Virus record (IMG/VR): IMGVR_UViG_3300026519_000011
Coordinates: 3,783-67,782 of that record
Length of the DNA: 64,000 nucleotides
Reading direction: 5' to 3' (one strand)
Source: a virus
Below, one piece after another: positions 21,685 through 63,391 of this stretch. Below the pieces are notes generated by a model that was given only the letters and a program-made list of their open reading frames with translations, ran no database searches and was not told where the DNA came from. Position numbers and translations under genes: made by a program. Position 1 is the first letter of the stretch. Each line of letters opens with the position of its first letter.

Positions 21685-24600
21685 TGCCCACGCAGTACGC
21701 CTTTAATAGGCTGGAGGAATTACGACCTTCTCAACCTGAACCAGATATAATAGTAGCCTTAGCCAGTAGCTCCGTGGCTAGAGCGGAATCGCAGGTAGTT
21801 ACTGTGGTTGACTTAGGACTGGTATCCGAGGAGGTAAGCTTCACGGCTGTTGCTTACGTCTCAGAAGCGGGAATTCCCGTATCGCACATAAACACCTTTG
21901 ACATACCTAAACCACTAGTTCTGCTCCACAGAACCCCGGTTGCTGTGAGAAACGACCTACCTACTCTGTATGCTATTAACTCCCCAGAACTTGAGCAGGT
22001 ACTTGATGGGGCGGTCTTTGGTTACAGCGCCAGTGCGGTAAAGAACGCAACTAAACAAGAGGCGTATGTGGATACGCCTAAGCTAGATTTTAAGACCACC
22101 TTTAAGACGGACATCTATAAGCCTGCTACATTTATCCCACCCTCTAATGGCACACTATCTCACCCAGTAGGTGAAGCGGTGTATGGCGCAGGGCTTAAAC
22201 TGAAATGGGATGGGAATATACCCGCGCCAGAGTCTTGGGCTATCTGGATAGGGACACAGCCCTTACAACGTGACCTAGAAAGCCGAGAAGTACCACTCAC
22301 CCCTGCGGTAGGAGGTAAGTACGTTTATGACCTTTCAGGGTATACGCTTACGGGCGATGATTTTTACGTCACGCTGTATGCCGTGAACGCAGGTGTGCCT
22401 ACTTATGTTGATTTCAGGAAATTCCACTTCGATACGTTAAACAGTATTAGTCTGGTGTCACATCCTCTTGATACGGTTAAGATCCTCGATGATGATGAGG
22501 TGCTACAGTTCCGAGCCATGCCAACTGTGGCAGACACCTTTACCATGAGCGCCACTGATAACACCGGTACGGTACTAGCCACCGATGCCACGTTACTGCC
22601 GGACAGTAACTACCAGTTCTCTAATCTTGATAGTACGCTCACCTCGGTGTCGATACGCGCTACACTAAAGCTTACTGGAGACCCAGATAGTGAATACTAT
22701 ACGGAGTTCACGAGACAGTACGACCCATTTGCCCCTGTCACTTTACTTCCTATCACGCTAACAGGTAACAGTGGAATAGTGCAGTGGGTATCGCCAGGCT
22801 GGTCTGATGATCTTTCTTGGGATATAGCAGCAGGAACACCGGCTAACCCTACCAGTGCAGTGAACCTGACAGGGCTTCCTGCTGGGGCTAGACAAGTATC
22901 TGGCATTAACTTCCGACCAGAGCAAGGTCCGCTTGTGCTTACCGTCACTTGGACAAGAGAAGGCAATCAGCCTCAGTCCATTGTCGGGGCTGTGGACTCC
23001 CCTTCTCTTGGGTTGACTAAAGCTAGTGAAGGTACCACGCTCGGGGGCATCACGGAGGTAGTATCGTGGACTGAGATGCCTTTCACCGATAACTACAAGG
23101 TGGTGGCTACTCAAAATGGGGCGGTACTGTTCGACAGCGGAGAGTTAGTAGGGGTCACCAGCACCACGATGACTAACCTGCCGTTAGGTTCTCCAGACCT
23201 CATTACCGTCACCCTGTATCACACCTACCAAGGGGTAGTCACAGAAACACAAAAAGTATGGGCACCCTCCTCCTCTCTCTTTCAAAATGACTTAGACAAG
23301 CCGTTATTGGGCAATGCTTTGTTGCTGAAGTGGCTACCTATCTCAGGCGACCACGACAGCCTACGCGTGTACGTGGCTGGAAGGTCTGGAGGTACGGAGC
23401 TACCGGCTAACGCCACCGAGTCTTGGGTATACGACATCCCTCTAAACCTAGACCCAGCAAGGTTCCACTTGGTATCAGTTAAGGCGGACGTAGAGACCAT
23501 CATTCAGACGATGCCTCTCACTATAAGCAATCAAGCACCGGTACTTACCGCCCCTGCCCTGGCCATTACCAGTAATACTACACAGGTGGCGTGGACACGG
23601 TCGGTACAAAGCGTAGCCTTCCAGAAAGCTATCCTACTTGCCACAGACAACTCCGTAATAGCTTCAACAGGTCCGCTATCTAACCTTGACTCATCCGCAC
23701 TGCTGACAGGGATACCAGATGTACCTAACCCTATTCGTATCTTGCTGTCTGTAGGTTTTGGTGGGGCTGAACACGGATCTACCTTTGCGCTTGAGAATAC
23801 CCGACTATTCCAGAATCTCACCTTTCCTGATGACGCTTTCTACGCAGATTCCGAGCAGATCACGTGGGATATAATAACGTTAAAGACGTTGGAGAACGTA
23901 AACGTACAAGTAAAGAGCAAAGCCTCTGGGCTTATCTATTACACCTCTGGTCCTCTAGCGCCTGAGATTAGGGAAGCACCTGCTACTGGGTTACCTACCG
24001 ATGGAAGTGATTTAGTAGTTACCCTGTATGCCAAGGCAGTAGGCGATGACTGGGTGGCTAAGGAATTCCCAGTAAAGGCATACGACCAAGCGTTAGTAAC
24101 GCCTTACATTGTATCCCCGAATGCCAGCGATACATTGCCTGTAGGTCCTAATACCTTCAGACTGTCCACTAATGGGCTACCTATAGCGTATTGGAGGTTC
24201 GTCATGGTGACGAACCAAGATGACCTGTCAAACCCCATTTATGACAGCGGGAATGTGCCTCCCAGTACGGTACTTTTTCCTGTACCTGCTATAGGCACAG
24301 GAGCACCCGTATACGCGGTGATAACGTACACGGACGGTACGATAATTAAGAAGATAGTTAAGCGGTTCACTGCCCCTTTGACCGTACCAGAACTGACTAC
24401 CCCAATAATTTATGACAGTGAGGACTTTACCTACACTTGGGGTACTATGGGTGCTATCGTGACTGCGTGGAGATTTACCGCAGAGCAAGGTGGAGGTGAG
24501 TTCTACGACTCAGGGGTGCTGGCTGCGGGGACGTACAATGCTTTCGTGACAGGGCACAATGTTGTGGGGTTACCTGTTACGGCGAAACTACATTATCAAT

Positions 24601-26033
24601 TAACAGATGGAAGCTGGCACGTTGTGACCGAAATTAATACCGGATTTACGCGACGTCCTACACTGGTGTCACCTACCTCAGGAACTTTGCTCACTACGGA
24701 TTCACCGCTATTCACTTGGGACTCTAATGGTGTTGTGGCTGAGTCTTGGGTACTCAAGATGGCAGGAACGGGGGATATACCTGAAGTAATCTACGAAGGT
24801 ATTCCTACAGGCACGCTACAGAAGACCTTGTACGGTATTACCCCTGATGGTACGCCGCGTAACGTATGGCTTGGATTCAGAGAGACTGTTGATGCGCCTT
24901 ACAAGATGGAACTCTACACGTTCCCTACGTTAGGTTCTCCGGTGTTCATTAATAGTTACCCTCCTGTGGAGAGCTTCACGGCTAATTGGGATAACCGAGG
25001 TACTCAGGTGAATTACTACACAGTTAGGCTTGGTAGCACTGCGGGAGCACAAGATTTAGGAATATCTCCGTCCCTGCCTAATGCTAGAAGGGCGTTCAGT
25101 TTCTTCAACCTTCCTAGAGACGGCAGAGTTATGTATGTAACACTAGAGTGGGTTAAGGTAGGGGGTACTGCCCCTTCTTCGGTAAGTAAACAAGTAAGGG
25201 CCCAGCTTTACGCCCCTAGTATTATCCCTGTAGAAGCGCCGTTGGTGGGGTCTAAAATAATCTCTTGGCAGGCAGGCGGGGTGGCGGTTTCAGAGTGGGG
25301 CTTAGAGGTTGGTACCTCTTATGGTGGTTCTGATGTGTTTAGCATACCTACAGGAATTCCCGCAGATGACACTACGGAAGCCGTAGACCTGCCAGTGATA
25401 CAAGGTACAGCATATTACACCTTGCATTATAAGCGGGCTGATGACGGGACATGGCACACCTCTGAGTACTCTCATCCCTTGGTGCAAGCGCCTTACCTAA
25501 TAGCGCCTAGTGAAGGTACGGTACTTGCGGGGGATAAGGTTACAGTGTCATGGGGTCCAGGAACTGACAACAAACTGGACAGATGGCAGGTGCTTGCAGG
25601 TCCTGTGGCTGGCGCTAACACCTTCTATGACTCGGGTGAGCTACTCACCTTCAGGCCTCATGAAGAGGTCACAGGGCTTCCTATTGACGGTTCTGAGGTG
25701 TGGGTGACGTTACGGTATCACGATGGTGTGGCGGACACATGGGACGAAATAACCGCACGGTACATTGCCTTCTTGAAGTTACCTGAGTTTTCCAATACGG
25801 TACTAGGGCAGAACGGTTTGATAAAGGAGCGCCTACACGACTTCGAGCACACCTTCCAGTGGGACTTCTTTAACCTACCTATAACCTCCTTCGAGCTTCT
25901 TATGGGGTCTACTCCCGGAGCGGATGATGTCTATCATTCTGCGGTATTGTCTGGGAGCGCAACTTCAGATACCGTTACGGGCATCCCGTCAGACGGCAGG
26001 GATTTGTACTTAACCTTACGATGGACCTTCTAA
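21684..26033 (+). CDS. Large virion protein with tandem Ig/FN3-like repeats
   Basis: Roughly a dozen ~95-aa repeats of type SP..G..L....FTW......W.L..GT..G..D.YDSG.L....LP.DG...YVTL.Y. Confidence 0.7.
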   Translation: MPTQYAFNRLEELRPSQPEPDIIVALASSSVARAESQVVTVVDLGLVSEEVSFTAVAYVSEAGIPVSHINTFDIPKPLVLLHRTPVAVRNDLPTLYAINSPELEQVLDGAVFGYSASAVKNATKQEAYVDTPKLDFKTTFKTDIYKPATFIPPSNGTLSHPVGEAVYGAGLKLKWDGNIPAPESWAIWIGTQPLQRDLESREVPLTPAVGGKYVYDLSGYTLTGDDFYVTLYAVNAGVPTYVDFRKFHFDTLNSISLVSHPLDTVKILDDDEVLQFRAMPTVADTFTMSATDNTGTVLATDATLLPDSNYQFSNLDSTLTSVSIRATLKLTGDPDSEYYTEFTRQYDPFAPVTLLPITLTGNSGIVQWVSPGWSDDLSWDIAAGTPANPTSAVNLTGLPAGARQVSGINFRPEQGPLVLTVTWTREGNQPQSIVGAVDSPSLGLTKASEGTTLGGITEVVSWTEMPFTDNYKVVATQNGAVLFDSGELVGVTSTTMTNLPLGSPDLITVTLYHTYQGVVTETQKVWAPSSSLFQNDLDKPLLGNALLLKWLPISGDHDSLRVYVAGRSGGTELPANATESWVYDIPLNLDPARFHLVSVKADVETIIQTMPLTISNQAPVLTAPALAITSNTTQVAWTRSVQSVAFQKAILLATDNSVIASTGPLSNLDSSALLTGIPDVPNPIRILLSVGFGGAEHGSTFALENTRLFQNLTFPDDAFYADSEQITWDIITLKTLENVNVQVKSKASGLIYYTSGPLAPEIREAPATGLPTDGSDLVVTLYAKAVGDDWVAKEFPVKAYDQALVTPYIVSPNASDTLPVGPNTFRLSTNGLPIAYWRFVMVTNQDDLSNPIYDSGNVPPSTVLFPVPAIGTGAPVYAVITYTDGTIIKKIVKRFTAPLTVPELTTPIIYDSEDFTYTWGTMGAIVTAWRFTAEQGGGEFYDSGVLAAGTYNAFVTGHNVVGLPVTAKLHYQLTDGSWHVVTEINTGFTRRPTLVSPTSGTLLTTDSPLFTWDSNGVVAESWVLKMAGTGDIPEVIYEGIPTGTLQKTLYGITPDGTPRNVWLGFRETVDAPYKMELYTFPTLGSPVFINSYPPVESFTANWDNRGTQVNYYTVRLGSTAGAQDLGISPSLPNARRAFSFFNLPRDGRVMYVTLEWVKVGGTAPSSVSKQVRAQLYAPSIIPVEAPLVGSKIISWQAGGVAVSEWGLEVGTSYGGSDVFSIPTGIPADDTTEAVDLPVIQGTAYYTLHYKRADDGTWHTSEYSHPLVQAPYLIAPSEGTVLAGDKVTVSWGPGTDNKLDRWQVLAGPVAGANTFYDSGELLTFRPHEEVTGLPIDGSEVWVTLRYHDGVADTWDEITARYIAFLKLPEFSNTVLGQNGLIKERLHDFEHTFQWDFFNLPITSFELLMGSTPGADDVYHSAVLSGSATSDTVTGIPSDGRDLYLTLRWTF
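24197..24215. repeat. 19-bp palindrome copy 3 (intragenic)
   Basis: GTTCGTCATGGTGACGAAC, encodes FVMVTN. Confidence 0.9.
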
Positions 26034-26037
26034 CACC

Positions 26038-27837
26038 ATGCCAACTTTCATTCAACAAGAGTACTTAGCGCCTGACGCACCTAAGGTGGTAAGCCCTGGA
26101 CCTGGCTCAGGGATAGGGGGTAGTTCCGTCGTATTTACGTGGGTTTCCCCTACGCTTAACGTGGATAGCTATCGACTTACGTTAGGATCTACGCAGGACG
26201 GTACTAACTATCACGATTCCGGTGCGCTTAATCAGACTACGGATGTGGTTACAGGCATCCCCTATGACGCAGGGGCTATACACGCGACGCTGTACTTCAC
26301 TAACTCCGGTGTCACGCGTTTCGTTCGTTACCAGTACACGGAGTCCCACCCTAGGATACGCACCCCTGTGGCCTATTCTGAACAGCCTATTGGCAACATC
26401 CCAATAAAATGGGCACCAGCAGATGCAGACCTAGGGTGTGATGTAACCATCACAGGTAAGCAGTCAGGGGTAGTGTATTTCCTGAGCTCGGCCAATAAAG
26501 GTAAATCAGCGTTTTGGCGGGTATCAGCAAGCGACTTGAACGCCCAAGATACACAGTTTGTAACTACCGTTAAGTGGCTGTCAGGTCCACTGACATTGAC
26601 TAAGGAATTCATACTGCACTCCTTACCTGCGTTGAATACCCCATATGACGTGGTTACCCCAGACCCTAGCGCCTTTAGTATCCTTGGTACCTTGGTAGGC
26701 AGTACGGACACCCTGAGCTTCCCTACTACGGTAAATCTGTTTAGGGATGGAAAGGAGACACGCTTCACTACCTCTGAGACACCGCTGTATTCTCAGCAAG
26801 CCACAGTAGCCTTGCCAGGCATAAAGCAAAATGAATTTATGCACTATGTGCGCAAGGTGGGAAGAAATTACACATGGCTACCAGCCCCTGCTCATACGCT
26901 TTGGGGTTCATTGCTTGGTGACCTTTTCACATTAGGTACTGGCGTAGAGTTCTCTTGGATGTGGACGATAGCTTCGCATGTAATGGTGGTAGTACCTACT
27001 ACGGATCAGTTCATGGTAATACCACTTGTTACGCTTAATAGTAGTAGGGTGGCTAGACTAGGATTCACAGGATTCTCGGATGCAGAGTCTGGCGAGGTAT
27101 CAGTGCAGGTGTGCCCTTGCATACCTCAAGTGCCTGACTTCTTGGAAGTGACTCATGCTGGCAGGAGAAGCGCTTCGGCTAAGGTTAAAGGGCTACCCAC
27201 CGCCTTACCTGTGAATAGCCAGAGACCGTTGTCTGAACTCAGCCTTGCCCATGACGTAAACGGTAAGAAGGTGCTTCCTGTGCTGTCACCGTTCTCCTCC
27301 AGAAAGTTTACCCAGCTCATAGAGAGCACTACCGCTACGCACAACCCTGAGTATTTCCCTATAGGGAAACAAGCCATAGATTTGTCGGCGTACACGTTTG
27401 CATGGACTGACAGCCAGCAACTTATTGGGCTGGTTAATTTTTTCCTAGACATAAAAGGGGCGCAAGAGTCTTTCATCTTGACAGATTATATGTCCACGCT
27501 TCCCGTGGTGGCATCCCCTACCGTTAACTCCGTGAGGCTATCCTACGCCTCAGATAAACAGAGACCGGTCACGGGGGATTTCAGGTATCTCGTCGTGCTT
27601 AAAGGACAGAATCCGGTATCCATCCATAAAGTTACTGGCTTTACCTTTGAGGATTACGATATGATAGTCACTCTTGATGAGCCGTTATCTTCAGATGCAC
27701 AGAGTAAACTCACCGATTGCTCCTATTCACTTTGTGAAGGGGTTATGGCTAGAGTTACCGACAGCACCATAACTATGACGCATCAAGGCATGGGCAAAGG
27801 GTCTTGCAGTTTATCTTTTACGGAGGTGGTTGAGTGA
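26038..27837 (+). CDS. Tail protein with N-terminal Ig-like repeats and a distal-tail-like C-terminus
   Basis: Same repeat at the N-terminus; FFLDIKGAQESF resembles distal tail proteins; precedes the BR0599-like gene. Confidence 0.6.
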   Translation: MPTFIQQEYLAPDAPKVVSPGPGSGIGGSSVVFTWVSPTLNVDSYRLTLGSTQDGTNYHDSGALNQTTDVVTGIPYDAGAIHATLYFTNSGVTRFVRYQYTESHPRIRTPVAYSEQPIGNIPIKWAPADADLGCDVTITGKQSGVVYFLSSANKGKSAFWRVSASDLNAQDTQFVTTVKWLSGPLTLTKEFILHSLPALNTPYDVVTPDPSAFSILGTLVGSTDTLSFPTTVNLFRDGKETRFTTSETPLYSQQATVALPGIKQNEFMHYVRKVGRNYTWLPAPAHTLWGSLLGDLFTLGTGVEFSWMWTIASHVMVVVPTTDQFMVIPLVTLNSSRVARLGFTGFSDAESGEVSVQVCPCIPQVPDFLEVTHAGRRSASAKVKGLPTALPVNSQRPLSELSLAHDVNGKKVLPVLSPFSSRKFTQLIESTTATHNPEYFPIGKQAIDLSAYTFAWTDSQQLIGLVNFFLDIKGAQESFILTDYMSTLPVVASPTVNSVRLSYASDKQRPVTGDFRYLVVLKGQNPVSIHKVTGFTFEDYDMIVTLDEPLSSDAQSKLTDCSYSLCEGVMARVTDSTITMTHQGMGKGSCSLSFTEVVE

Positions 27838-28652
27838 GTGACGCTACAGTAGGAACCTACCTATTACTGGTAGACATATTCAGAGGGGCTGAACACTTCG
27901 CTATGGTGGCTTCTGGTCGCCCCTTTAGTTTCCAAGGCACTACTTACGAACCCGCTGACATGAAGTTTAGAGAAGCTAATATGCGCTCGTCAGGAAAGGC
28001 TTCTTCGCAAGGGTTTAACTTCTCCATCCCTGCTTCTTCCGATGCGGGTAAGTTCTTAAAATTACCCGTGGATTCCGACGCTACAAAGGTCATCATGCGG
28101 ATGGTGTCCACGGGAGGAGAGCAGGTGTTCTTGTTGCGGGGTGTCGTTCAGAATGTCTCTGATGAAGTCCGTATGATTGGGCTTGAGATAGGTACGCTAC
28201 GCGTCAGCCTAGGGCACGTAGGACTTAACCTAAAGTATGCGAATACGTGTAGCCACTCCCTGTATAATTCCAGATGCAAAGTTCCTAAACAAGGATTCCC
28301 TCAACAGATATTAGGTGGCTTTAAGGCTACTACCGGAGGCGGGTATGTCATCCACCTCTCGGTAGCTGTGACTGACCAAGAGCATTACGACGAAGGATTT
28401 CTCACGATAGACCATCAAGGTGTTAAGCTGTACTCACCTATCACCAAGATAGTGTCCTACGGGACGGGTAGTTTAGTTTTCTTGCCTCGATGGTTGGGCG
28501 TTGACCTACAGAATGGGGTGGCGATATTATACAAAGGGTGCGACCTAACTTTCACTACCTGCAAAACAAGATTCAATAATACGGAAAACTTTGGCGGGTT
28601 TCCGTTCTTTACAGGGTCTGAAAACCCTTTCAATAACCACGTCTTGGATTAA
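27834..28652 (+). CDS. Tail hub protein, DUF2163/BR0599 (GTA gp13-like)
   Basis: C.HSLY..RC and GCD.TFTTCK.RFNN..NFGGFPF signature. Confidence 0.88.
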   Translation: MSDATVGTYLLLVDIFRGAEHFAMVASGRPFSFQGTTYEPADMKFREANMRSSGKASSQGFNFSIPASSDAGKFLKLPVDSDATKVIMRMVSTGGEQVFLLRGVVQNVSDEVRMIGLEIGTLRVSLGHVGLNLKYANTCSHSLYNSRCKVPKQGFPQQILGGFKATTGGGYVIHLSVAVTDQEHYDEGFLTIDHQGVKLYSPITKIVSYGTGSLVFLPRWLGVDLQNGVAILYKGCDLTFTTCKTRFNNTENFGGFPFFTGSENPFNNHVLD

Positions 28653-28657
28653 TCGTT

Positions 28658-31396
28658 ATGTTCTGGCTCACCAAATTAGCAATATCGCTTGTCATATCCT
28701 ACCTGTCCTCAGAATTTTTCGGTCCATCAGAACAGAAGCGAAGTGGTTCTGAGGATGCTAACTCACTCGATCAGAGCGAAGTACCCACCGCAGAAATGGG
28801 CAAGACTATCCCTGTGGTGTTCGGTAGTCGCTGGATAACCTCGCCTAACGTAGTGTTCTGGCGTAAGTCAAAGACGGAGAATGTAGGGGCTTACCGAAAG
28901 CATTTTGTGGATATGCACATGGCGGTGTGCCACGGTCCCGTAGATGCCGTAAGGAATATAGGCATAGACAAGAAGCTACCTGTGATGACAGCTCCTGTCA
29001 CGCCTCAGGAGTTATTGGCTAAGCCTTCTAAGCTAAGCGTTACCATGTCTTACGTTGCTGAAGATAATTCAATATCAAAAACTACCTTGGCTACATGGGC
29101 TGAACCTACGTTTAAAGAGGTTGCAGGTCCTTTAGTAAATGATGGAGGTGGAAATAATTCCCGTACTTACCTCGTAAGCCTTCATGACCTAGCTACTTCC
29201 GAAGGTTATACCTTCCAGAAACTCCCTATCTCAACTACCCCTTATTCAGTAACAGTTGATGGGGCGTTCACCATTTTCAGTGCGTTCTCTAGGGTACTTA
29301 CCGAAGACGAGTGGGATTCTATAGCAAACGACTCTTCAGGCAGTCTGCCTTTGGGTTTAACCTTGGACGCACCCGGTGCTATACAATCGGCGCTTAACCT
29401 TCCTGCGATTAAAGGGGGCAAGGACGGGGAGATAACGATAAAAGTAGAGGTAGACGGTAAGACTGTAGCGTCTAAAGCCATATTCGTAAGGGATGCTTAT
29501 CTGCCTGGTTTTTTAACCGAAGATCTGATGCCTTCAGACGTTATCCACGCACTGACCAGAGCTGGAGCAAGTATAAGACACGTAGGTGAAACTTACCCAG
29601 ACGGTACTGTTAACCCTCTATTCACCATAAAGGCTCAGCTGGTGTTCGACGCCCCAGGAGTAGTGAGAAAAATAAGCTCCGGAAGCGAAGCGGAGTATGC
29701 TCACGTCACCCAGATCCTTGATTACCAGTTCGAGGAACTAGCGATGTTCCTATCCAGCAACACCCTTGAAGACGTTAGTGGTGTAGTCCCTTTGGGTATG
29801 CCTACGCTGTTCGGTGGGTATAAAGAGGGAGGAGGAATAGAAGGGGAGTTGTGCGTAGTAAACGGGGATCAAGATACCAGCACAGAGGTCTCCAACACCT
29901 TGGATTGGTTGCACCTTACTTCCACCCAGTTTGGCGGTAAGCTACTTGACGACCGGTACGCTGCGGATTACGCCTCATTCCCTGCTTGCCGCTATCGCTC
30001 TGTGGTTAGCGCGATACTCAAAGACACCTACGTTGTGGCTAATGCAGGTAGCATACGTCCGTGGCATTTCGGGATAATGAGAAGCCCTAACACCTTGCCT
30101 GGTGCTGGAAACTACTCAAGAATAGGCATGAATGCTAATGCCGCTTGTGTGCTATATGAGGTGCTGACTAACAAAGATTGGGGAAAGGGATTTGATCCTA
30201 AGGACATACAAACCGATACCTTTGTGGCTGCCGCTAGGACGCTCCATGGGGAAGGGTTGGGAATATCCATTGTATGGAACAAGGCTACAACGGTAGATGA
30301 CTTCCTAGGAATCATAGCCAAGCACGCCTTTGGTACTTGGCGTGTGGATATTTTCGGCACAGGTAAAGTACAGTTCCATTTATTCCGAGACTATCAAGGG
30401 GACATATCAGACCTGCATGTTATCAACCCATTAAAAGTAGGTGTGTTTAAGCGAAAGGCATCCCATGAAGTAACTAATGAAGTACAGGTGAAGTGGAAAG
30501 AATACACCGACGTAGGTGATGTTGATCGAGTAGCGTATGCCAGAAACATGGCACATATTCATAGAAATAATGGGGCAGTCAATGCGACCACTATGGTGTT
30601 GGGAGGCATAGCGGATGAGAAATCTGCGAAGTACTTGGCGCAACTTAATTTAGACAGCGACGGATACCCTCTTGCTGTAATAGATTTTACAGAAGACCTT
30701 ATGTCAGGTAATTATCTTGTTGGTGACCATATCGTGGTTGACATACCTAAATATGTGAGTAAGCCTACCATATTCCGAGTTACCGACATCCGTACCGTGG
30801 ATACCCACAAGTCTGTGATAGCCATAGAGGACGTTTTCGTCTACACCTCTGGAGGTGTTTCAGGAGATCTTCAGGTAGTGCCTGTCGGTATTCTAGTAGG
30901 GGTAAAACCCACCACCTTCCGCATTAACCCTTTCAGAGGGTCTAAAGGGGAGTTCTTCCTGACATCAGTAAGTGGTGCAGACATATTTGCTTCTCTTGAG
31001 GACGGAATAATTTCGGTCACAGCCTCGATAAATAATATCGGGGATAAGCTAATCTCGTACCAAGGGGTAAACGCAGCAGGACTTGTGACAAGTGGGTATT
31101 TCACCGTGAATGTTCGCGACACTGCTTCGCATAATTTCTCTGTAACCCCTGAGTCAGTGTCGCTACCATCTGGAGGTTCCACTACCTTGTTGTTACCTGA
31201 TCCATCTACCGTTAGGGCGGTCAGGGTACATAAAGAAGTGCCAGAGGTGTCTTTGTCAATTCATGAAGAGGGCAGTGGAGTTAGTATATTTTCAGAGACC
31301 TCTGACTACAGCCAGTGGTCACCTCCTTACCAAGTATCCGTAGTGGTTAAGGACGTTTACAACGCCGAAGCAATCCTTAATATAACAATCAACTAA
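28658..31396 (+). CDS. Tail tip / central fibre protein (GTA-like)
   Basis: PTAEMGKTIPVVFGS...SPNVV...CHGPVD and MNANAACVLYEVLTNKDWG motifs. Confidence 0.82.
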   Translation: MFWLTKLAISLVISYLSSEFFGPSEQKRSGSEDANSLDQSEVPTAEMGKTIPVVFGSRWITSPNVVFWRKSKTENVGAYRKHFVDMHMAVCHGPVDAVRNIGIDKKLPVMTAPVTPQELLAKPSKLSVTMSYVAEDNSISKTTLATWAEPTFKEVAGPLVNDGGGNNSRTYLVSLHDLATSEGYTFQKLPISTTPYSVTVDGAFTIFSAFSRVLTEDEWDSIANDSSGSLPLGLTLDAPGAIQSALNLPAIKGGKDGEITIKVEVDGKTVASKAIFVRDAYLPGFLTEDLMPSDVIHALTRAGASIRHVGETYPDGTVNPLFTIKAQLVFDAPGVVRKISSGSEAEYAHVTQILDYQFEELAMFLSSNTLEDVSGVVPLGMPTLFGGYKEGGGIEGELCVVNGDQDTSTEVSNTLDWLHLTSTQFGGKLLDDRYAADYASFPACRYRSVVSAILKDTYVVANAGSIRPWHFGIMRSPNTLPGAGNYSRIGMNANAACVLYEVLTNKDWGKGFDPKDIQTDTFVAAARTLHGEGLGISIVWNKATTVDDFLGIIAKHAFGTWRVDIFGTGKVQFHLFRDYQGDISDLHVINPLKVGVFKRKASHEVTNEVQVKWKEYTDVGDVDRVAYARNMAHIHRNNGAVNATTMVLGGIADEKSAKYLAQLNLDSDGYPLAVIDFTEDLMSGNYLVGDHIVVDIPKYVSKPTIFRVTDIRTVDTHKSVIAIEDVFVYTSGGVSGDLQVVPVGILVGVKPTTFRINPFRGSKGEFFLTSVSGADIFASLEDGIISVTASINNIGDKLISYQGVNAAGLVTSGYFTVNVRDTASHNFSVTPESVSLPSGGSTTLLLPDPSTVRAVRVHKEVPEVSLSIHEEGSGVSIFSETSDYSQWSPPYQVSVVVKDVYNAEAILNITIN

Positions 31397-31401
31397 GAAC
31401 C

Positions 31402-31420
31402 GTTCATCACGGTGATGAAC
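31402..31420. repeat. 19-bp palindrome copy 4
   Basis: GTTCATCACGGTGATGAAC. Confidence 0.9.
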
Positions 31421-36569: not shown

Positions 36570-36612
36570 GTTCGTCAGGATGACGAGCGACCCGTTCATC
36601 ACCATGATGAAC
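36570..36612. repeat. 19-bp palindrome copies 6 and 7 (tandem, upstream of polA)
   Basis: GTTCGTCAGGATGACGAGC (36570) and GTTCATCACCATGATGAAC (36594). Confidence 0.9.
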
Positions 36613-49148: not shown

Positions 49149-49433
49149 TTACGCCGTGCGTTCAAGATAATGAAGCAGTAGCGTTAGGTGTGGGTTAGGT
49201 CCTTCGCACACGTCTCGCATGGTTTTGTAATACTGACATGGCGATAAGGCCTTCTTTAGCCATGCTGACAATAGTATCTCGTCATTCTTCTTTATAGCCA
49301 GCGTTAGCGCGTATTTAGTAGCCAGAGAAATACTACCACTGCGGTCTAATTCGATAAGACACTTTTCTTGTAAACCTCTTGTGTCTTCCCCTTCGATAAT
49401 TTCTTCCATACTGTTTCCTTTTATTGACATCAT
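49149..49433 (-). CDS. Hypothetical protein
   Basis: ORF directly downstream of the E1 gene. Confidence 0.5.
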   Translation of the reverse strand: MMSIKGNSMEEIIEGEDTRGLQEKCLIELDRSGSISLATKYALTLAIKKNDEILLSAWLKKALSPCQYYKTMRDVCEGPNPHLTLLLHYLERTA

Positions 49434-50155
49434 AATATTTTCGCCTCACTCTGAAGTAATGGAGGGGTCACCCCTCCAGCTCCGTCTCTAAAGCTATACT
49501 TTCTAGCAAAATCCACTTCCTGTGGGCCATTAAGCGCGTGAACCATTTGCCATAAGGCTGTACATGCTAAACTGTCCGCTGTAGCGCCTACACTTAACGC
49601 GCTACCACAAGCACTCACTTCCTCGTAAACGTCCTCTGCGGGGAGACTAGCCTCCCACGCCTCTACTTCCACAGGGTTGTCTGGTCTTACCACATAAGTC
49701 TCATGGTGAGATACCGCCATGCGAGTCTCCACTACTAAAGCAACCATTCCTGAAAGCACCAGCTCATCCATGATCTCCTGTCTTGCCTTGATGGTATCGA
49801 CAAGAAGAAAAACTATGTCTCGCTGTTCGGTTAGCTCCAAGTCTTCTGAGGTGGTTACCCACCCCTCCACCGCTGTAACAAGTTGCTGTTCCATGTTCTC
49901 ATTCACGAACTCAGCGATCTGGGTAGCTTTCTTTCCTCCCACATGCCGAGGGAAAAACAACTGGTTGGCTAGGTTGTGCGCCTCCACGGAATCGTCGTCA
50001 TAGACGAATATATCGGACATACCGAGTTTGGCTAGATGGTATACCACATGGGAGCCTACTGCACCTGCTCCTATGACATGCACCCTGCGGTCATTCATTA
50101 TTGGATTAAACACCTCTTGGTGTCTTGCTATATCTATCGTGTTACGTTTTTTCAT
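49430..50155 (-). CDS. E1-like ThiF/MoeB adenylating enzyme
   Basis: VIGAGAVGS, YDDDSVEAHNLANQ, LVD..KAR; candidate catalytic Cys in EEVSACG. Confidence 0.92.
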   Translation of the reverse strand: MKKRNTIDIARHQEVFNPIMNDRRVHVIGAGAVGSHVVYHLAKLGMSDIFVYDDDSVEAHNLANQLFFPRHVGGKKATQIAEFVNENMEQQLVTAVEGWVTTSEDLELTEQRDIVFLLVDTIKARQEIMDELVLSGMVALVVETRMAVSHHETYVVRPDNPVEVEAWEASLPAEDVYEEVSACGSALSVGATADSLACTALWQMVHALNGPQEVDFARKYSFRDGAGGVTPPLLQSEAKIL

Positions 50156-51480
50156 GGTCTGTATTCCTCGGAGGATCTGTATTCCTCGGATGGTGTGGTT
50201 GCTGTTGATTCATTAGTGGTTGCGGGTTCTGGTTCTGGTTCTGGTTCTTGTTCTGGTTCGTCATGGTGATGAACGACTACTTTTCTCTGGTATTTCTCGA
50301 CATCGTATAAGCTATCCAACTTATACCCATCCCAGTTACTGGCGGTAAAGTTAGCGAAGTCATAAAAATCCGTTACACCTTCGTCTGCCGCTTCATCAAG
50401 CATATTAGTGTTAGATAAAAATAGGATAAGGTGGTCTACCAGAGACTCGTAATTCCCTGTCTCAAGACAATCCATCACCACGCCCTCATAAGAGCCGAGA
50501 CAAGGCTGAGTTGCAGCTTCCCAGGAGTTTGTGTCCAACTTCTCAGAAAAAGGCATAATGCCCCATACGACGTGCGGGTGCGGTATAAGGGCGGAATCTA
50601 GTAGTCCTGCCTCATACCGTGACAGATTATAAATCCGTATGGCATCCCGAACGTATCTCATGCGTGTCGCTCCTTTAGTTAGGTCTACGTGGACAAGGAA
50701 CTTGCCGCAATATATATCACGATCATGATCAGACTGCCCTTCTTGATATTCATCATCGTGAGGATCGAACGTAGCCCTGCCTTGGATATACTCAGTCTCA
50801 AAGATTAGCTTCCCATCTACCGTACAATAATTCATCACCTTTGGGTGCGTTATTACTGGAATAGAGTCTGCTGGGGGAGACTCTTCAAGCAGAAGTAACT
50901 CGGCTTGAAGAGTCTTATACGTATCAACCTGAGCGGCAAGACGCGTCTGCAAATTACTTAGCATTTCCTGCGCATCCACTATCTCTGCGCGAATTCTAGC
51001 AGTCCGATCTAGGTTCACGATACGCAAGGATTCTGGTATGTTCATGGGGTTAGCGAGAGTAGCGTTCTGCTTCTCTACCCCGTATTTTTGGTACGCGTCT
51101 ATCACCATGTTCTCAAAGTGGACATGTGCTTCTGGGTCTCGTTCAAAACTACGGAAATCTGACTCCTCCACCGCTAGGAACAGCCCACCGTCGTAGACGA
51201 AGACCGCCCCAGATACCTGATCCCCTAAGTAAAGTGGTGCGTAAGGGATACCCACCACACCCCAAGAAGACCCAGCCATTGCGTGGCTAAGACCTCTGTA
51301 CAGAAATATCCCTGCTGGTATCGCCCCCTTTGCTCCGTTAAATTTCGCATAAACCTGTGCATTACCTATAAATTCAGAGAATAATGCACGTCTCCGGCCT
51401 TTGCCGGTGTCGTAATGCTCATCTATGAATACCGGTAGGCTATACGTCTCTAGAGGCATTCGTCCTATGTATCTAAGCAT
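50152..51480 (-). CDS. Prokaryotic E2-like (UBC-fold) protein with N-terminal coiled coil
   Basis: PHPHV...QPCLGSY...LILFL pattern typical of prokaryotic E2; likely start ATG 51480 (SD GGAGG). Confidence 0.7.
   Translation of the reverse strand: MLRYIGRMPLETYSLPVFIDEHYDTGKGRRRALFSEFIGNAQVYAKFNGAKGAIPAGIFLYRGLSHAMAGSSWGVVGIPYAPLYLGDQVSGAVFVYDGGLFLAVEESDFRSFERDPEAHVHFENMVIDAYQKYGVEKQNATLANPMNIPESLRIVNLDRTARIRAEIVDAQEMLSNLQTRLAAQVDTYKTLQAELLLLEESPPADSIPVITHPKVMNYCTVDGKLIFETEYIQGRATFDPHDDEYQEGQSDHDRDIYCGKFLVHVDLTKGATRMRYVRDAIRIYNLSRYEAGLLDSALIPHPHVVWGIMPFSEKLDTNSWEAATQPCLGSYEGVVMDCLETGNYESLVDHLILFLSNTNMLDEAADEGVTDFYDFANFTASNWDGYKLDSLYDVEKYQRKVVVHHHDEPEQEPEPEPEPATTNESTATTPSEEYRSSEEYRP
50256..50274. 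repeat. 19-bp palindrome copy 11 (inside the E2-like gene tail)
   Basis: GTTCGTCATGGTGATGAAC, abutted by (GGTTCT)n. Confidence 0.9.
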
Positions 51481-52867
51481 TACGCGCCTCCTCGTCCTCA
51501 GACACTGCTCTGGCACTCTCACTACCTGCTGATGGTAATAGGTCAGAGCCTCTCTGCCAGCACGCTATCGCCTCGTTACTCATTCCGTATAGATTTGTGA
51601 ATTCTCTCTCTAATATCTGTGCCATTTTCTTGACATCCCCCGCTATGAAGGCTTGGTACAGTTGACCGTACAGCATGGATGGTGGCGGTGAGTCTACTAT
51701 AATTATATTGCTTATGCTGTCTACGCCAACATATACCTTAGACAGTATTTCCTTTAAAAACTCGCTGTTACTATCTTCTGTTGACCTTGTGGGTAACGTC
51801 GTGGAATACTTATAAGGATCCTCGAATAACGGGGACACCATAGTGCAAGGATGTATGTGGATTTTTACGTCATTACCTCTATTACTAATGTACATGGAGG
51901 ATAGGGGTGCAACTCTCTCCAGCCTTAGAGAGGTGGAGTAGGTCTTAGTACTATTATGGATATGCACCACCACCTCTGGAGCCTTTACCTCCTTGCCTCG
52001 CACCTTTATGGTTAGTTCTGGTATCCGTATGGCCCAAGTGTAATCATCATACACGGTGAATACACTGCCCTTTTTAGTTGTTATCGAACCTACTTCTAGT
52101 GTTGGTGATACACCATCAGCCCTCGCTCTGAGAGCTGCCATTTCATCCTCAGTCTCTTGCACTTCCTGCCCTAGCTTAGCAATATTTTCCCATTCCCTAC
52201 TCAGAGCGTGCTTCTTATCGTGTAAAACGTAGGTAAGCTCTGTTAACCTACCGTTAACCGTGTCGGAATTTTTAGCAGGAATTACTATTCTAGTACTTCC
52301 CTGAGGTAAATCTCCATCAGAAATCTCGCCAAATATTCGTTCGACGAGTGGCTCCAGAACCTTGATCGAGCCTGATGATGAGAAAATATCCCGCGAGGAT
52401 ATTAGCACCTTCTCGCCTCCTTCTAGCTGTACCGCGATGGCTACTATCTTATTCTCATACTGGAAAAGTATATTATTCACTTTGTCCAGTCCTTCTGCGA
52501 CGTACACGACACTATTTAACGAGGTATACTCAGTCTGGAATATGTGCAGGGATTTAGGGTCTTTCAGGCTGAACACCGCTTCGGTCTCTACTAGACCTTC
52601 AGCCTCCACCGTGTTATTTAAGTAATTCCCTAAGCCAATTCTCTTGGAGTATACAAAAGGTATTGGCGGGTGGTTCAAACACCAAGGTAATATATCGGCA
52701 TCGGATACTATCGTTCGTCGGTTTCCTTGCTCGTTTACATCATTAGGGCCTGCCATCCAGCCCCAAATATGCGGGTAATTAGGTATCCTTTCTGGTGTGA
52801 CCACCAAAGCACCTTTGACTACTGCTTCGTAAAGGTTTCCCTCAAAAGGTATTATGTTGTCGTTCAT
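51473..52867 (-). CDS. Divergent E2-like paralog (possibly inactive)
   Basis: Same layout as its neighbour (N-domain, coiled coil, beta strands, HIHP, terminal helices) but no CLG motif. Confidence 0.45.
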   Translation of the reverse strand: MNDNIIPFEGNLYEAVVKGALVVTPERIPNYPHIWGWMAGPNDVNEQGNRRTIVSDADILPWCLNHPPIPFVYSKRIGLGNYLNNTVEAEGLVETEAVFSLKDPKSLHIFQTEYTSLNSVVYVAEGLDKVNNILFQYENKIVAIAVQLEGGEKVLISSRDIFSSSGSIKVLEPLVERIFGEISDGDLPQGSTRIVIPAKNSDTVNGRLTELTYVLHDKKHALSREWENIAKLGQEVQETEDEMAALRARADGVSPTLEVGSITTKKGSVFTVYDDYTWAIRIPELTIKVRGKEVKAPEVVVHIHNSTKTYSTSLRLERVAPLSSMYISNRGNDVKIHIHPCTMVSPLFEDPYKYSTTLPTRSTEDSNSEFLKEILSKVYVGVDSISNIIIVDSPPPSMLYGQLYQAFIAGDVKKMAQILEREFTNLYGMSNEAIACWQRGSDLLPSAGSESARAVSEDEEARNA

Positions 52868-52907: not shown

Positions 52908-52926
52908 GTTCATCATCGTGATGAAC
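52908..52926. repeat. 19-bp palindrome copy 12
   Basis: GTTCATCATCGTGATGAAC. Confidence 0.9.
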
Positions 52927-52957: not shown

Positions 52958-54316
52958 CTAAGTAGCTTTACATTCGTTAAACCTAAGCACCTCAAACCCA
53001 GTAAATAGCCACCCAGCCCCGTCTTCTGATGATGCCTCTAGTAGCGTTTTAGTGGGTGTTAAGTCACCCATAACACCCTTCTCGTTTAATCTCTTATAGG
53101 CCTCCTCGTGCTCAACCAGCACGCCTGTACCTATTACCTCTCCGAATAGGAGAATAGGTATCTCATGTCTGAGATTTCTTAATCCTTTCTCAGCCAAAAC
53201 ATCCACCGAACCACCTTCTGCTATAGTCTTACCGCAGTCCCTCCCTAAGCTAAACCCATAATCCCATACAGACCTTATACGGGCGATATTTTTCTCGTAC
53301 CCAGCGAACTCTATGTGAGTCTCCACCACGGATAATAACCCGTCTCCTACTACCGTGAGCTGGCTGTCCTCCAGCACTTCGTCCAGCCATGTCTTACATC
53401 TTGATTCAGGGTCCACATCATGTATGCCTACCACAATGCCTTGTGCAATACCTAACAAGGCTACCTCGCTTAGCTCTTGATAAGCATCCAAAAATAGGGA
53501 ATCACCTCTCGCCAGCCCCTTCCCAAGAGAGATCAGATCACTGTCAAATGCCGCTAGATGTTCACCCCATAGTTCGAGTTCGCTAAGTGAGTGGGTTATC
53601 CCCAACTCCAGATAGCTAATAGCTTCTGCATATTCTTCATCCATATCCTCATCATAAATTTCATCTACGAAAGGGTCTGGAGAGGTGTCCACTTGACCTA
53701 TATACCCTGACAAACCCCTTCCTCTCCCTTGCCAACCCCCTACTCTGGAACCTTGCCACCCGTATTGGGTTGAATTTGTAGCCACTTTGACATGCTTCAA
53801 CTGCTTTTTGAGCGCCTTTATTCTGTCTGTATTGGTATAGACAATCGCCACCGAGAGGTTCTCCCATACAAGGTTAAGCCCTAGGTCGATAGCATCGAAG
53901 CGTATTTCCTGCTTCTTATTTATAATTATCCTTACCATCTTTTCTCCGTCGGAATAGTTAGACAGAAATTTCTGAATAGTTACCTCATCGTCCGCTGATG
54001 GCTTTACCGGCATGTCCACATGGGAGTGGCAGTGAACCAGTAGGTCTGATAATTCCTCATCTTCGTCCATCATGTCTTCCCGCATCTTTGCCTCTTGCTC
54101 AGGCTCGATGTCGGCATCCACGGAGGTTACCGTCTGCTCTGGTATTCGTATTGGTCCATGCACTAGCCACACGTTGTCCTCGCTTACGGATAGGTGGGCA
54201 TAGAATGCTACCTCGGTAGCTACGGCATTTATTGCGTATAGCATTTCATTGTAGGTGTCATAGGCTATTTGACCTATAGGTGGGGTTTTCTCGTGTAGCA
54301 CTCTCAGCTTACTCAT
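52958..54316 (-). CDS. JAB/JAMM metalloprotease with acidic C-terminal extension
   Basis: Upstream Glu (TEVAF) plus HSH-x7-S-x2-D (HSHVDMPVKPSADD); likely start ATG 54316 (SD GAGGA). Confidence 0.88.
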   Translation of the reverse strand: MSKLRVLHEKTPPIGQIAYDTYNEMLYAINAVATEVAFYAHLSVSEDNVWLVHGPIRIPEQTVTSVDADIEPEQEAKMREDMMDEDEELSDLLVHCHSHVDMPVKPSADDEVTIQKFLSNYSDGEKMVRIIINKKQEIRFDAIDLGLNLVWENLSVAIVYTNTDRIKALKKQLKHVKVATNSTQYGWQGSRVGGWQGRGRGLSGYIGQVDTSPDPFVDEIYDEDMDEEYAEAISYLELGITHSLSELELWGEHLAAFDSDLISLGKGLARGDSLFLDAYQELSEVALLGIAQGIVVGIHDVDPESRCKTWLDEVLEDSQLTVVGDGLLSVVETHIEFAGYEKNIARIRSVWDYGFSLGRDCGKTIAEGGSVDVLAEKGLRNLRHEIPILLFGEVIGTGVLVEHEEAYKRLNEKGVMGDLTPTKTLLEASSEDGAGWLFTGFEVLRFNECKAT

Positions 54317-54456
54317 ATCATTTCCTCGGATGTATAACGTAAAATTACCAGCCACCATTGGCCTGTAATTGTTGAATTTAAAATAGAGGTCGGAACACGA
54401 CTATCGACCTCTAGCCTACTTAGTAGGGCTTGGTGCTACTGACTACAACATTAAAC

Positions 54457-55179
54457 TTAGTCTTGTGCTTTGTCATCGACATGCTCTGATTCAACATTTT
54501 TAGTTCCAGTAAGGTCTATGGCACAGGCTTCAACCTCTTCAGGTAGTTCCTTACTCACGGCGTTTATCGCTTCTACACGACGTGCTAACTCTATCGTCTG
54601 CTCAGCACATGAGGTAGCTACCTCAAGGCGTATGTTCCAGTCCTTGACCGTGTTATCCATTTCTGTAGCATTAAGTACGCTAATGACTAGCGGGTAATCC
54701 GTGTCATCAGCTTGCGCCTCCTGTACGCTCATTGCACGCTTCTTGGTAACTACTCCTATCATGCCTGGGTTACCTGTTATAACTAGAGAACCTACCTCCA
54801 CTTTGTTCTTAGCTACGACAGGTGAGAGTATGCAAGGCGTGCTCAAACCTTCTGGATTACTACGACGTTTAATCGCCTTCTTGTTACCGAACTCCAAAGG
54901 GTCTGATAAAGCTACCTCACACACCGTCAATCCCTCAGTCATTAGTAACGCTAACTGGGTAGCTCTGTTAGATGACTTAGAGCCTCCTGCAAAAGAGATT
55001 CTAGTGTAGGTATGTGCCAGCGCTGACCCAGATAACTCCACCCCTCCAGATGATGGCTTTAAACCTGAATCAAGCCCTAGTTTTTCTTTAAGACCATCAA
55101 TAGTCAGGGTGTCGTCGATGGTGACTGGTCCCGTAGTAGACATTGATGGGGTTATTACTCGTATAGTTGTAGTACTCAT
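54457..55179 (-). CDS. Ubiquitin-like (beta-grasp) domain fused to a C-terminal phage protein
   Basis: First ~70 aa follow the beta-beta-alpha-beta-beta pattern and end in RISFAGG(66)SKSSN; first gene of the JAB-E2-E1 cluster. Confidence 0.6.
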   Translation of the reverse strand: MSTTTIRVITPSMSTTGPVTIDDTLTIDGLKEKLGLDSGLKPSSGGVELSGSALAHTYTRISFAGGSKSSNRATQLALLMTEGLTVCEVALSDPLEFGNKKAIKRRSNPEGLSTPCILSPVVAKNKVEVGSLVITGNPGMIGVVTKKRAMSVQEAQADDTDYPLVISVLNATEMDNTVKDWNIRLEVATSCAEQTIELARRVEAINAVSKELPEEVEACAIDLTGTKNVESEHVDDKAQD

Positions 55180-55217: not shown

Positions 55218-55236
55218 GTTCATCGCCATGATGAAC
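55218..55236. repeat. 19-bp palindrome copy 13
   Basis: GTTCATCGCCATGATGAAC, upstream of the Ubl gene. Confidence 0.88.
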
Positions 55237-55941: not shown

Positions 55942-55960
55942 GTTCATCACCATGATGAAC
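55942..55960. repeat. 19-bp palindrome copy 14
   Basis: GTTCATCACCATGATGAAC, downstream of P2. Confidence 0.9.
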
Positions 55961-56005: not shown

Positions 56006-56041
56006 ATTATAGCACACTTTAAGGCGTTTGTCAACCCCTAG
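56006..56041 (-). promoter_or_regulatory. Consensus sigma70 promoter P2, upstream of the ubiquitin-like cluster
   Basis: CTAGGGG-TTGACA-N17-TATAAT with extended -10 TG. Confidence 0.9.
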
Positions 56042-56658: not shown

Positions 56659-57183
56659 TTACGTATTATTGGGGTCTAATGGCGTACCGTTTTTAGTAAA
56701 CAGCCTACCATCATTAACATCTACACCAGCCTTCAAGGATAGGGCGGTGTTGTCTCCTTCTGCTAAGTCTTTTAGTACACTTGATAGTGCTACTTTCTTC
56801 GCGGTTCTACCAAGACTTGAGAACACATACGCTCTAGGTTTATTTGGGTTGTCCGCTGAAGACAGCTTATGTCGACGGTACTCTTCTGAAGCTCTCACAA
56901 ACTCCTCCAAACCCTCTATCAACTCCATAAGCACATCCCCAGCATAGGTTGGTTCGCACCCTGTTTTCGTCCGAGTCATAAGCCGTACACCCATGATCTT
57001 TTCCACCTTAACTATCTTTAGGCTTACCGCGGGCTGAGAAACCCCAAGCGCAAGGGCTGCCCCAGTGAAACTCTCCGCCTCGTAGACCGCTTTGAATACT
57101 CTCAGCTCGTTACTCATGAAGAGTTCATCCATAATAGACCCCCGTATCACTGGGGGTTTCTTGGTGTCGTGCTTACTTTTCAT
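56659..57183 (-). CDS. LysR-type winged HTH protein lacking the effector domain
   Basis: ELRVFKAVYEAESFTGAALALGVSQPAVSLKIVKVEKIMGVRLMTR is the LysR HTH signature; only 174 aa. Confidence 0.85.
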   Translation of the reverse strand: MKSKHDTKKPPVIRGSIMDELFMSNELRVFKAVYEAESFTGAALALGVSQPAVSLKIVKVEKIMGVRLMTRTKTGCEPTYAGDVLMELIEGLEEFVRASEEYRRHKLSSADNPNKPRAYVFSSLGRTAKKVALSSVLKDLAEGDNTALSLKAGVDVNDGRLFTKNGTPLDPNNT

Positions 57184-63372: not shown

Positions 63373-63391
63373 GTTCATCACCGTGATGAAC
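63373..63391. repeat. 19-bp palindrome copy 19
   Basis: GTTCATCACCGTGATGAAC. Confidence 0.9.

Follow-up and report, generated by a model that had tools for sequence, protein, structure and literature searches.

A phage gene fusing a candidate ubiquitin-like domain to a second domain beside JAMM protease and E1 genes

A gene joining a candidate ubiquitin-like protein (Ubl) to a second domain was characterized in a 64,000-nt stretch of viral DNA (positions 3,783 to 67,782 of the IMG/VR record IMGVR_UViG_3300026519_000011), hereafter the window. The gene is an open reading frame (ORF) of 240 codons and a stop at 54457..55179 on the minus strand, delineated from the ORF list and from one homologue; it encodes a Ubl-like domain, a linker and a C-terminal domain in a single frame. 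The genes of a candidate JAMM protease and of a ThiF-type E1 adenylating enzyme were located downstream on the same strand. From this arrangement, we infer a cut in the fusion protein and its position, activation by the E1, conjugation, and a role for the released C-terminal protein. The 240-aa protein would be a precursor, and its N-terminal ~66 residues would form a ThiS/SAMP-type beta-grasp modifier. The reactive tail of this modifier, F-A-G-G66, would be buried, as it is continued by a 10-residue linker of small residues and by a 164-residue domain. The neighbouring JAMM protease would cut at or near G66, giving a Ubl of ~6.7 kDa with a free carboxylate and a C-terminal protein of ~18.7 kDa. 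The ThiF-type E1 would then adenylate the freed Ubl tail, and the Ubl would be passed to targets by the E1 alone or together with two ~460-aa proteins of the operon that would act like an E2 or as adaptors. The JAMM enzyme might, in addition, undo the conjugation. Taken as a whole, this explanation was given an even chance of being correct.

The fusion ORF was intact, with an ATG start and an AAGGA Shine-Dalgarno sequence 8-12 nt 5' of the start. The original prediction, made from the sequence, held that the Ubl candidate has no stop of its own and continues into a second domain, and this was borne out by the intact 240-aa ORF. The sequence Y58-T-R-I-S-F-A-G-G66-S-K-S-S-N71, as quoted there, ran without a stop into a different-looking C-terminal part. 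Homologues were sought by an exhaustive phmmer search of 1.84 billion representatives, which returned a single relative, P0002 (225 aa), with an E value of 2.4e-10 and 26% identity, residues 4-209 of the fusion being aligned with residues 3-204 of P0002. The same pair gave an E value of 2e-17 by BLASTP. The alignment covered both halves of the fusion, with identities of 19/63 in aa 1-66, 2/10 in aa 67-76, 24/91 in aa 77-170 (the core of the C-terminal domain) and 9/43 in aa 171-214 (its helix). As P0002 spans both halves, an assembly artefact can be dismissed and the fusion counts as conserved; sequence comparison thus confirmed it as a real, conserved protein. The joining of two genes by a sequencing artefact was likewise ruled out because P0002 crosses the junction. 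Relatives of the fusion or of P0002 were not found by tblastn in 50,697 phage records, and pattern scans of viral contigs, metagenome contigs and genome contigs found no relatives of the fusion. The word-indexed protein search returned only the fusion itself for the single sequence, and only the two known members for a two-row alignment of the fusion and P0002 (A1).

The order on the minus strand was a promoter, a 74-aa ORF, a 153-aa ORF, the fusion gene, a 140-nt gap, the JAMM gene, the genes of a 464-aa and a 456-aa protein, and the E1 gene. The JAMM/MPN+ protease candidate was assigned by its motif and by a weak Prok-JAB match. It occupies 52958..54316 (minus strand) and has 452 aa in the form given by the gene caller, with an ATG at 54316 and a GAGGAA Shine-Dalgarno sequence, whereas a start at the other possible ATG, 54358, would give 466 aa. 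The protease domain occupies the N-terminal part, and no family is assigned to the C-terminal ~270 aa. The motif HSHVDMPVKPSADD was located at 53987-54028, corresponding to aa 97-110 of the 452-aa form, and Glu35 lies 62 residues upstream of it; the protein therefore contains the full E...HxHx7Sx2D zinc-site pattern. Moreover, the H.H.{7}S..D pattern occurred only once in the six frames of the window (127,996 codons), namely in this gene, and the JAB with an HSH motif that had been predicted next to the fusion was thus present. The match to Pfam Prok-JAB had an E value of 4.6e-4 and 20.5 bits, which is under the 25-bit cut-off, and that to the PADLOC JAB model had an E value of 0.017. A word search with the JAB returned only itself, the viral contigs gave no match, and the comparison with solved structures by sequence gave nothing informative. 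The JAB, 464-aa and 456-aa proteins also had no match in the phage records by tblastn.

The E1 (241 aa, 49430..50155, minus strand) matched PF00899 with an E value of 2.2e-24 and is of the ThiF/MoeB/UbaA type; its gene is the fourth downstream of the fusion. Its NCBIfam matches were 6A-MBL cap2_3 (E 8.5e-19), TIGR02356 (E 2.5e-17) and PRTRC ThiF (E 1.2e-14). The first and the last of these were partial, the cap2_3 match covering only positions ~287-398 of 665, and the PADLOC E1-E2 models matched over the E1 part only. The C-termini in the operon read ...KAQD, ...CKAT, ...ARNA, ...EYRP and ...AKIL, none of which ends in Gly. A small Gly-ended ORF that might serve as an alternative E1 substrate was not found beside the operon; the nearest Gly-ended ORFs encode 161 and 150 aa and lie farther upstream. 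The only Ubl candidate is therefore internal to a longer protein, and an E1 needs a free carboxylate. Hence, processing is the economical reading of this operon.

The candidate for the modifier is a ThiS/SAMP2-like beta-grasp domain at aa 1-66 (54982..55179, minus strand), which ends in F63-A-G-G66. The exact fusion sequence was present in the ESM Atlas, and the Atlas model was compared by structure. A 70-aa archaeal SAMP2/ThiS cluster matched residues 2-67 of the fusion with a template modelling (TM) score, by row, of 0.77. A 74-aa viral cluster matched residues 3-67 with a TM score of 0.73, and a 79-aa viral cluster (10% ThiS) matched residues 1-73 with a TM score of 0.70. Ubiquitin-containing clusters also matched the model with lower TM scores, and a MoaD-MoaE fusion cluster was among the structural rows with TM scores of 0.32-0.33. 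The top matches thus came from several independent Ubl-type clusters, all of them within residues 1-73. Because the matches of the 70-74-aa clusters end at residue 67, these free modifiers stop where A-G-G66 lies. An AlphaFold2 model of A1 had the secondary-structure order E4-6, E19-21, H27-33, H51-55 and E59-61 according to DSSP, at a mean predicted local distance difference test (pLDDT) score of 36, and the E-E-H-H-E order of this low-confidence model is compatible with a beta-grasp. On one kind of structural model and on the gene context, the N-terminal part is likely to be a beta-grasp Ubl.

As encoded, A-G-G66 is internal, with 174 residues after it, and a free C-terminal Gly-Gly is absent from the translated product; a free Ubl tail would need proteolysis. 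The linker (aa 67-76, 54952..54981, minus strand) reads SKSSNRATQL in the fusion and TKGAGKAQKM in P0002, with 2/10 identical residues in the alignment, K68 and A73 being the only conserved positions. In both known members, small residues make up a linker behind position 66. The interaction of the protease with the junction was explored by complex prediction with aa 1-190 of the JAB and aa 1-95 of the fusion. The ipSAE values were 0.27, 0.51 and 0.24 in runs without controls, and this prediction counts neither for nor against binding of the two proteins. The original prediction placed the JAB cut after G66 or a few residues later, with the cut as a possible activating switch and the cargo as a possible target of conjugation. 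The operon context, the linker and the JAB precedents discussed below were in line with a cut in this region, whereas the Gly-Gly pair itself was not conserved. That the JAB would cut at or near G66 is judged about evenly balanced from the sequence. An internal start making the C-terminal part separately was rejected: the codons of A64-G65-G66, GCAGGAGGC, contain AGGAGG, yet no in-frame ATG, GTG or TTG lies between these codons and M80, 36 nt downstream of them.

Several results weigh against the explanation. P0002 reads S-A-A / ISFSAATKGAGKAQ where the fusion reads A-G-G / ISFAGGSKSSNRATQ. Because G65-G66 is A-A in the only homologue, the proposed position is not a conserved Gly-Gly site; possibly Ala is accepted at the scissile position, the two proteins are cut at different sites, or no cut occurs. 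The family has two members, and P0002 was found on a 1313-nt contig without context. Hence, the co-occurrence of the fusion, the JAB and the E1 has been seen once. The AlphaFold2 models had pLDDT values of 36 for A1 and 49 for aa 1-72 alone and were both unusable, and the mean pLDDT of the Atlas ESM model of the fusion was 0.51. Since AlphaFold2 gave no confident model, the beta-grasp fold rests on one ESM model, i.e., on a structure from a language model. No Ubl model in Pfam, NCBIfam, PHROG or PADLOC matched the fusion. In Pfam, the ThiS, SAMP2 and ubiquitin models gave no match, no family was found at E<=1 for the whole fusion, and none was significant at E<=10 for the halves; the only weak match of aa 1-72 alone was the OTU1 UBX-like domain at an insignificant E value of 0.064. 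The ThiS hidden Markov model (HMM) matched nothing in this genome at E<=10, and the same HMM gave matches in 13/14 control genomes. The fusion and A1 gave nothing informative against solved structures by sequence. The putative Ubl of the original prediction was therefore supported by the Atlas matches to Ubl clusters and left without backing by AlphaFold2 and by the Pfam families. Furthermore, no E2 family was found in the operon in Pfam, NCBIfam or PADLOC.

The first alternative is a two-domain protein that stays uncleaved, in which the beta-grasp would dock the C-terminal domain to the E1, to the JAB or to the ~460-aa proteins. This would parallel the UBX/UBL-domain proteins and perhaps lambda tail assembly protein I, and the E1 would act on another C-terminus, as Cap2 does on a CD-NTase tail. 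The missing Gly-Gly of P0002 fits this alternative, as does the similar conservation on both sides through the junction region. The best defence matches of the E1 were also E1 modules of the Cap2 type, which act on a substrate other than a beta-grasp. Against these points, no other protein of the operon was Gly-ended or resembled a known E1 substrate, no Gly-ended small ORF was adjacent, and the junction is a small-residue linker of the type cut by JAB enzymes. An uncleaved protein was accordingly considered rather unlikely.

The second alternative is that the N-terminal part is no Ubl at all but an unrelated phage protein beside a JAB/E1 pair, with an incidental A-G-G. The failure of every sequence profile to back a Ubl, the lack of a fold from AlphaFold2 and the low overall confidence of the Atlas model agree with it, and the profile comparison with a counterpart from crAss-like phages, described below, was not significant (E 0.018, probability 2.6%). 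However, the top structural matches were several independent Ubl-type clusters over residues 1-73, and the gene stands in an operon with an E1 and a JAB, so that this alternative appears improbable. A ThiS/MoaD-like sulfur carrier, which would be processed by the JAB and adenylated to a thiocarboxylate that feeds phage sulfur insertion by the ~460-aa proteins without conjugation, is very improbable: the ThiF/MoeB-type score of the E1 against TIGR02356, the ThiS/SAMP2/MoaD-MoaE classes among the structural matches, and the JAB-ThiS-E1 sulfur-transfer operons described in PMC1779556 speak for it, but Pfam and NCBIfam gave no sulfur-handling family in the operon, be it a rhodanese, a cysteine desulfurase, a PP-loop protein or another, the ThiS HMM was silent in this genome, and the neighbours are DNA replication and repair genes.

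The C-terminal domain (aa 77-240, 54460..54951, minus strand) was described from a low-confidence AlphaFold2 model and from P0002. Its core (~84-170) appears to be rich in beta strands and to be followed by a long helix (~171-209) and an acidic tail. For residues 77-240, Pfam, NCBIfam, PHROG and PADLOC gave no family, and sequence searches of the PDB gave no relative. In the Atlas, aa 72-240 gave no usable feature match, and the structural rows all had TM scores <0.5 and came from unrelated families. The original prediction held that this part resembles stand-alone small phage proteins. This was not borne out by the searches, since neither the exhaustive phmmer search, in which local matches to relatives of any length were reportable, nor the Atlas comparison of aa 72-240 gave a stand-alone relative. 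The coiled coil that had also been proposed was retained in part: a long helix is predicted at 171-209, whereas the model is of low confidence and shows a helix only. As the sole lead, P0002 aa 114-185 weakly matched phrog_13551 (136 positions, function unknown) at an E value of 0.0012; the same family had no match in the fusion protein of the window, and nothing in this genome matched it at E<=10.

Related cassettes were explored in other phages. A tblastn search with the E1 matched 12 phage records at 21-31% identity, and 6 of these 12 were examined. Phage operons with related E1s repeat the gene string of the window, which counts in favour of the proposed explanation. In MT835544 (35 kb, unannotated), a 78-aa ORF is followed by proteins of 491 aa and of 303 aa, the latter with HSHVNMATNPSGVD, and by an E1. 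Its JAB and E1 were the closest to those of the window, with BLASTP E values of 3e-8 and 4e-21, respectively, in a 37-protein database. In cr85_1, cr128_1 and bajarodcaudo virus 1, which are crAss-like or related genomes, primase is followed by proteins of 201-253, 371-435 and 366-401 aa, then by the E1, a protein of 214-255 aa and uracil-DNA glycosylase. Two of these records annotate a metalloprotease domain in the 366-401-aa protein. Its JAMM motif was found in cr85_1, to which the motif scan was confined among the three, and the E values of the protein against Prok-JAB ranged from 6e-5 to 3e-3. A scan of viral contigs with the 201-253-aa protein gave 58 loci, all with a full ORF of 201-267 aa. 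In crAss-like phages, the gene of this protein lies between the primase and the JAMM/ThiF pair (L003:1942-2598, L005:2523-3284, L006:2602-3207 and, as a match at ~5001-5750, L008-L065). The JAMM motif was located 2.1-2.7 kb downstream on the same strand in 54/58 loci, and two of the four misses were cut contigs.

After one duplicate and one locus with a match starting inside the ORF were dropped, 56 distinct crAss-like sequences were aligned. The conserved N-terminal ~90 residues ended in K84-x-I-x-S88-G89, G89 being invariant and S88 at least 90% conserved, and the conservation fell after this point. Judged by eye, the crAss-like 201-267-aa protein would be built like the fusion, with a Ubl-like domain ending in Gly that is followed by a C-terminal region. 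The 56 members gave no Ubl family in Pfam, and the crAss-like alignments A2, A3 and A4 gave nothing informative against solved structures by sequence. The comparison of the fusion with the crAss-like profile covered 34 columns at equivalent positions and did not reach significance at the values given above. The comparisons of Ubl parts or whole fusions with the counterparts of the other phages were also not significant, with best E values of 0.018-0.057 over 16-34 columns. In the Xanthomonas jumbo phage PhiXhv-12, a 140-aa ORF (L002:1736-2158) with a low-complexity N-terminal half was found two genes before the E1. It ends in ...KASGG / LKLTAIAKASGG-stop and looks, from its sequence, like a Ubl with a free Gly-Gly. 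A JAMM motif was not found in the 10.5 kb of PhiXhv-12 that were examined.

The large proteins adjoining the E1 in the window phage, PhiXhv-12 and the crAss-like phages share an H-x-H...C-[LF]-x-G motif. In the window, the 456-aa protein (50152..51522, minus strand) carries I-P-H-P-H...Q-P-C-L-G-S-Y at 50497-50580 on the minus strand, an IPHPH-x22-PCLGSY arrangement that was seen by eye. The 892-aa protein of PhiXhv-12 carries IHPH...SLCLGSF (L002:4185-4238), and the crAss-like large protein (L003:2673-3788) carries HSH...PCLGSGP, which was invariant in the three sequences aligned. We take the H-x-H...C-L-x-G motif to recall the HPN...Cys site of UBC E2s. By this visual likeness the 456-aa protein may be E2-like; the E2 models of Pfam, NCBIfam and PADLOC did not match it. 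The comparison of the large proteins with their counterparts in other phages by hhalign gave E values of 0.09-0.7, those of 0.09-0.3 being at the motif only. The 464-aa protein (51473..52867, minus strand) and the 456-aa protein had no family in Pfam, NCBIfam, PHROG or PADLOC, and they were rejected as paralogues of each other (BLASTP E >= 3.3). Unrelated tailed-phage lineages, namely this siphovirus-like phage, the crAss-like phages and the Xanthomonas/Erwinia jumbo phages, would carry an as yet unrecognized Ubl conjugation cassette of a Ubl, a JAMM, a large H-x-H...C-L-x-G protein and an E1 beside replication genes. In several lineages, the Ubl would be an N-terminal fusion that the JAMM must cut, one cleavage both arming the modifier and freeing a second protein. 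This generalization is tentative and, on balance, doubtful. A description of a crAss-like ThiF/ubiquitin system was not found in the full-text literature, a scope that most subscription journals lie outside.

The window makes up most of the 67.8-kb record, which is classed as linear and has an estimated completeness of 57%. PHROG matches identified a tailed phage. The plus strand encodes a large terminase, a portal, a head protease, a major head protein, a tape measure and tail proteins, and the minus strand encodes a Dda-like helicase, a DNA polymerase, a helicase, a primase and an SbcCD-like nuclease. The fusion operon lies on the minus strand upstream of this replication block, its neighbours being genes for DNA replication and repair, and outside the tail module (14188-31396, plus strand). 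The tape measure protein has 2498 aa (14188-21684, plus strand), which implies an unusually long tail. At the DNA level, the search of the phage records gave only a 43-nt match to the window, which is of a size expected by chance.

Signals around the operon were also recorded. A sigma-70 consensus promoter, TTGACA-17-TATAAT with a TG, matched at 12/12 positions at 56006..56034 (minus strand), upstream of the two small ORFs and the fusion; the total of promoter-like sites in the region was no higher than in shuffles. Just upstream of the promoter region, a 174-aa protein (56659-57183, minus strand) has a LysR-type helix-turn-helix (PF00126, E 1.4e-17) without the LysR effector domain. Directly 3' of the fusion stop, a hairpin with a 9-bp stem (UAGAGGUCG/CGACCUCUA) and a 12-nt loop is followed by UUUU (54384..54413, minus strand). 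It was not listed by the terminator scan, which is limited to loops of 3-8 nt, and the 106-nt stretch had a z-score of -0.81. This hairpin may be a partial terminator that gives the fusion higher expression than the enzymes. A 19-nt palindrome, GTTCRTC-N5-GAYGAAC (7-bp stem, 5-nt loop), occurred in 7 exact copies in the window, where 0 were expected, and in 17 copies with <=2 mismatches, where 0.24 were expected; examples are located at 31402-31420, 36594-36612, 50256-50274, 52908-52926, 55218-55236, 55942-55960 and 63373-63391. Among its locations are sites just 5' of the fusion gene and just 3' of the consensus promoter, as well as the interval that separates the JAB gene from the 464-aa gene. 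The A/G and T/C changes are paired between the two arms, which indicates that the stem is kept. The palindrome is probably a phage-specific regulatory or terminator hairpin.

Prokaryotic Ubl systems with an E1 and a JAB are known bacterial anti-phage defences. To our knowledge, the Ubls of these defences are extended at the C-terminus by no more than a few residues. In the window, a phage encodes the system, and the candidate modifier comes as a native fusion with a 174-residue domain. If the cleavage is real, the fusion would be a natural counterpart, in a prokaryotic virus, of the ubiquitin-fusion precursors, and it would act as a one-step switch that yields two products in equal amounts. 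A role in counter-defence or in the control of replication would also be suggested for the cassette, which seems to be widespread among crAss-like gut phages and bears no annotation there beyond 'ThiF' and 'metalloprotease'. Eukaryotic ubiquitin-ribosomal protein fusions, UBA52 and RPS27A, offer the familiar parallel, in which the modifier is made as the N-terminal part and freed by a protease. The parallel is an analogy only: the proteases belong to different classes, the cargoes are unrelated, and nothing points to common descent.

Among phage proteins, lambda tail assembly protein I (TAPI) is close in layout. Unlike lambda TAPI, the fusion had no match to Lambda_tail_I, the Pfam family of this protein, and it lies off the tail module, on the opposite strand, among early/replication genes. 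It thus differs from lambda TAPI both in sequence and in position, which for TAPI is between the tail genes K and J. PMC1779556 (Iyer, Burroughs and Aravind, 2006) describes TAPI as being of similar size to the fusion, with a ThiS/MoaD-like Ubl at the N-terminus and a small domain at the C-terminus, joined by a linker that is Gly-rich or made of small residues. The JAB is predicted there to cut lambda/T1 TAPI at the last Gly of the Ubl. TAPI has an adjoining TAPK (JAB plus NlpC/P60), as the fusion has an adjoining JAB, whereas the TAPI operons lack the E1 that this operon has.

The BilABCD/Bub systems also bring together a Ubl, a JAB-type deubiquitinase and an E1 (PMC10557695 and PMC11601603). 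According to the former, BilC pre-processes BilA by a cut between G97 and A98, which exposes the reactive Gly, and it also cuts a fusion of BilA with green fluorescent protein (GFP). The natural extension of BilA is therefore 1 residue, compared with 174 in the fusion. The Bil/Bub Ubls described in PMC11601603 bear their extra domains N-terminal to the beta-grasp. These systems come from bacterial defence islands, whereas this one is phage-encoded, and PADLOC matched only the E1 part and, weakly (E 0.017), the JAB, not the fusion or the ~460-aa proteins, and a Bil/Bub E2 was not among its matches. In CBASS of type II (signalling against phages that is based on cyclic oligonucleotides), Cap3 cleaves a linear fusion of cGAS with GFP precisely behind the final residue of cGAS (10.1101/2022.03.31.486616). 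The E1 of the window scored best against Cap2-type E1 modules; however, the operon had no CD-NTase family in Pfam, NCBIfam or PADLOC, the E2 part of Cap2 was unmatched, and the CBASS substrate is a disordered tail whereas the substrate here would be a beta-grasp candidate. In archaeal SAMP1-MoaE with HvJAMM1 and in the MoaD-MoaE and ThiS-ThiG fusions, a Ubl of the ThiS/MoaD class is joined head to tail with a partner, and separation by a JAMM has been proposed or shown (PMC4443979 and PMC1779556). The C-terminal part of the fusion is neither MoaE nor ThiG. Operons of a Ubl, a JAB and an E1, pre-processing of a Ubl by a JAB, and a phage protein made of a Ubl, a linker and a domain beside a JAB are thus already in print (PMC1779556 and PMC10557695). 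What appears to be new in the present sequence is a phage E1/JAB cassette that lies off the tail module and in which the sole Ubl candidate forms a native fusion with a domain of 174 residues.

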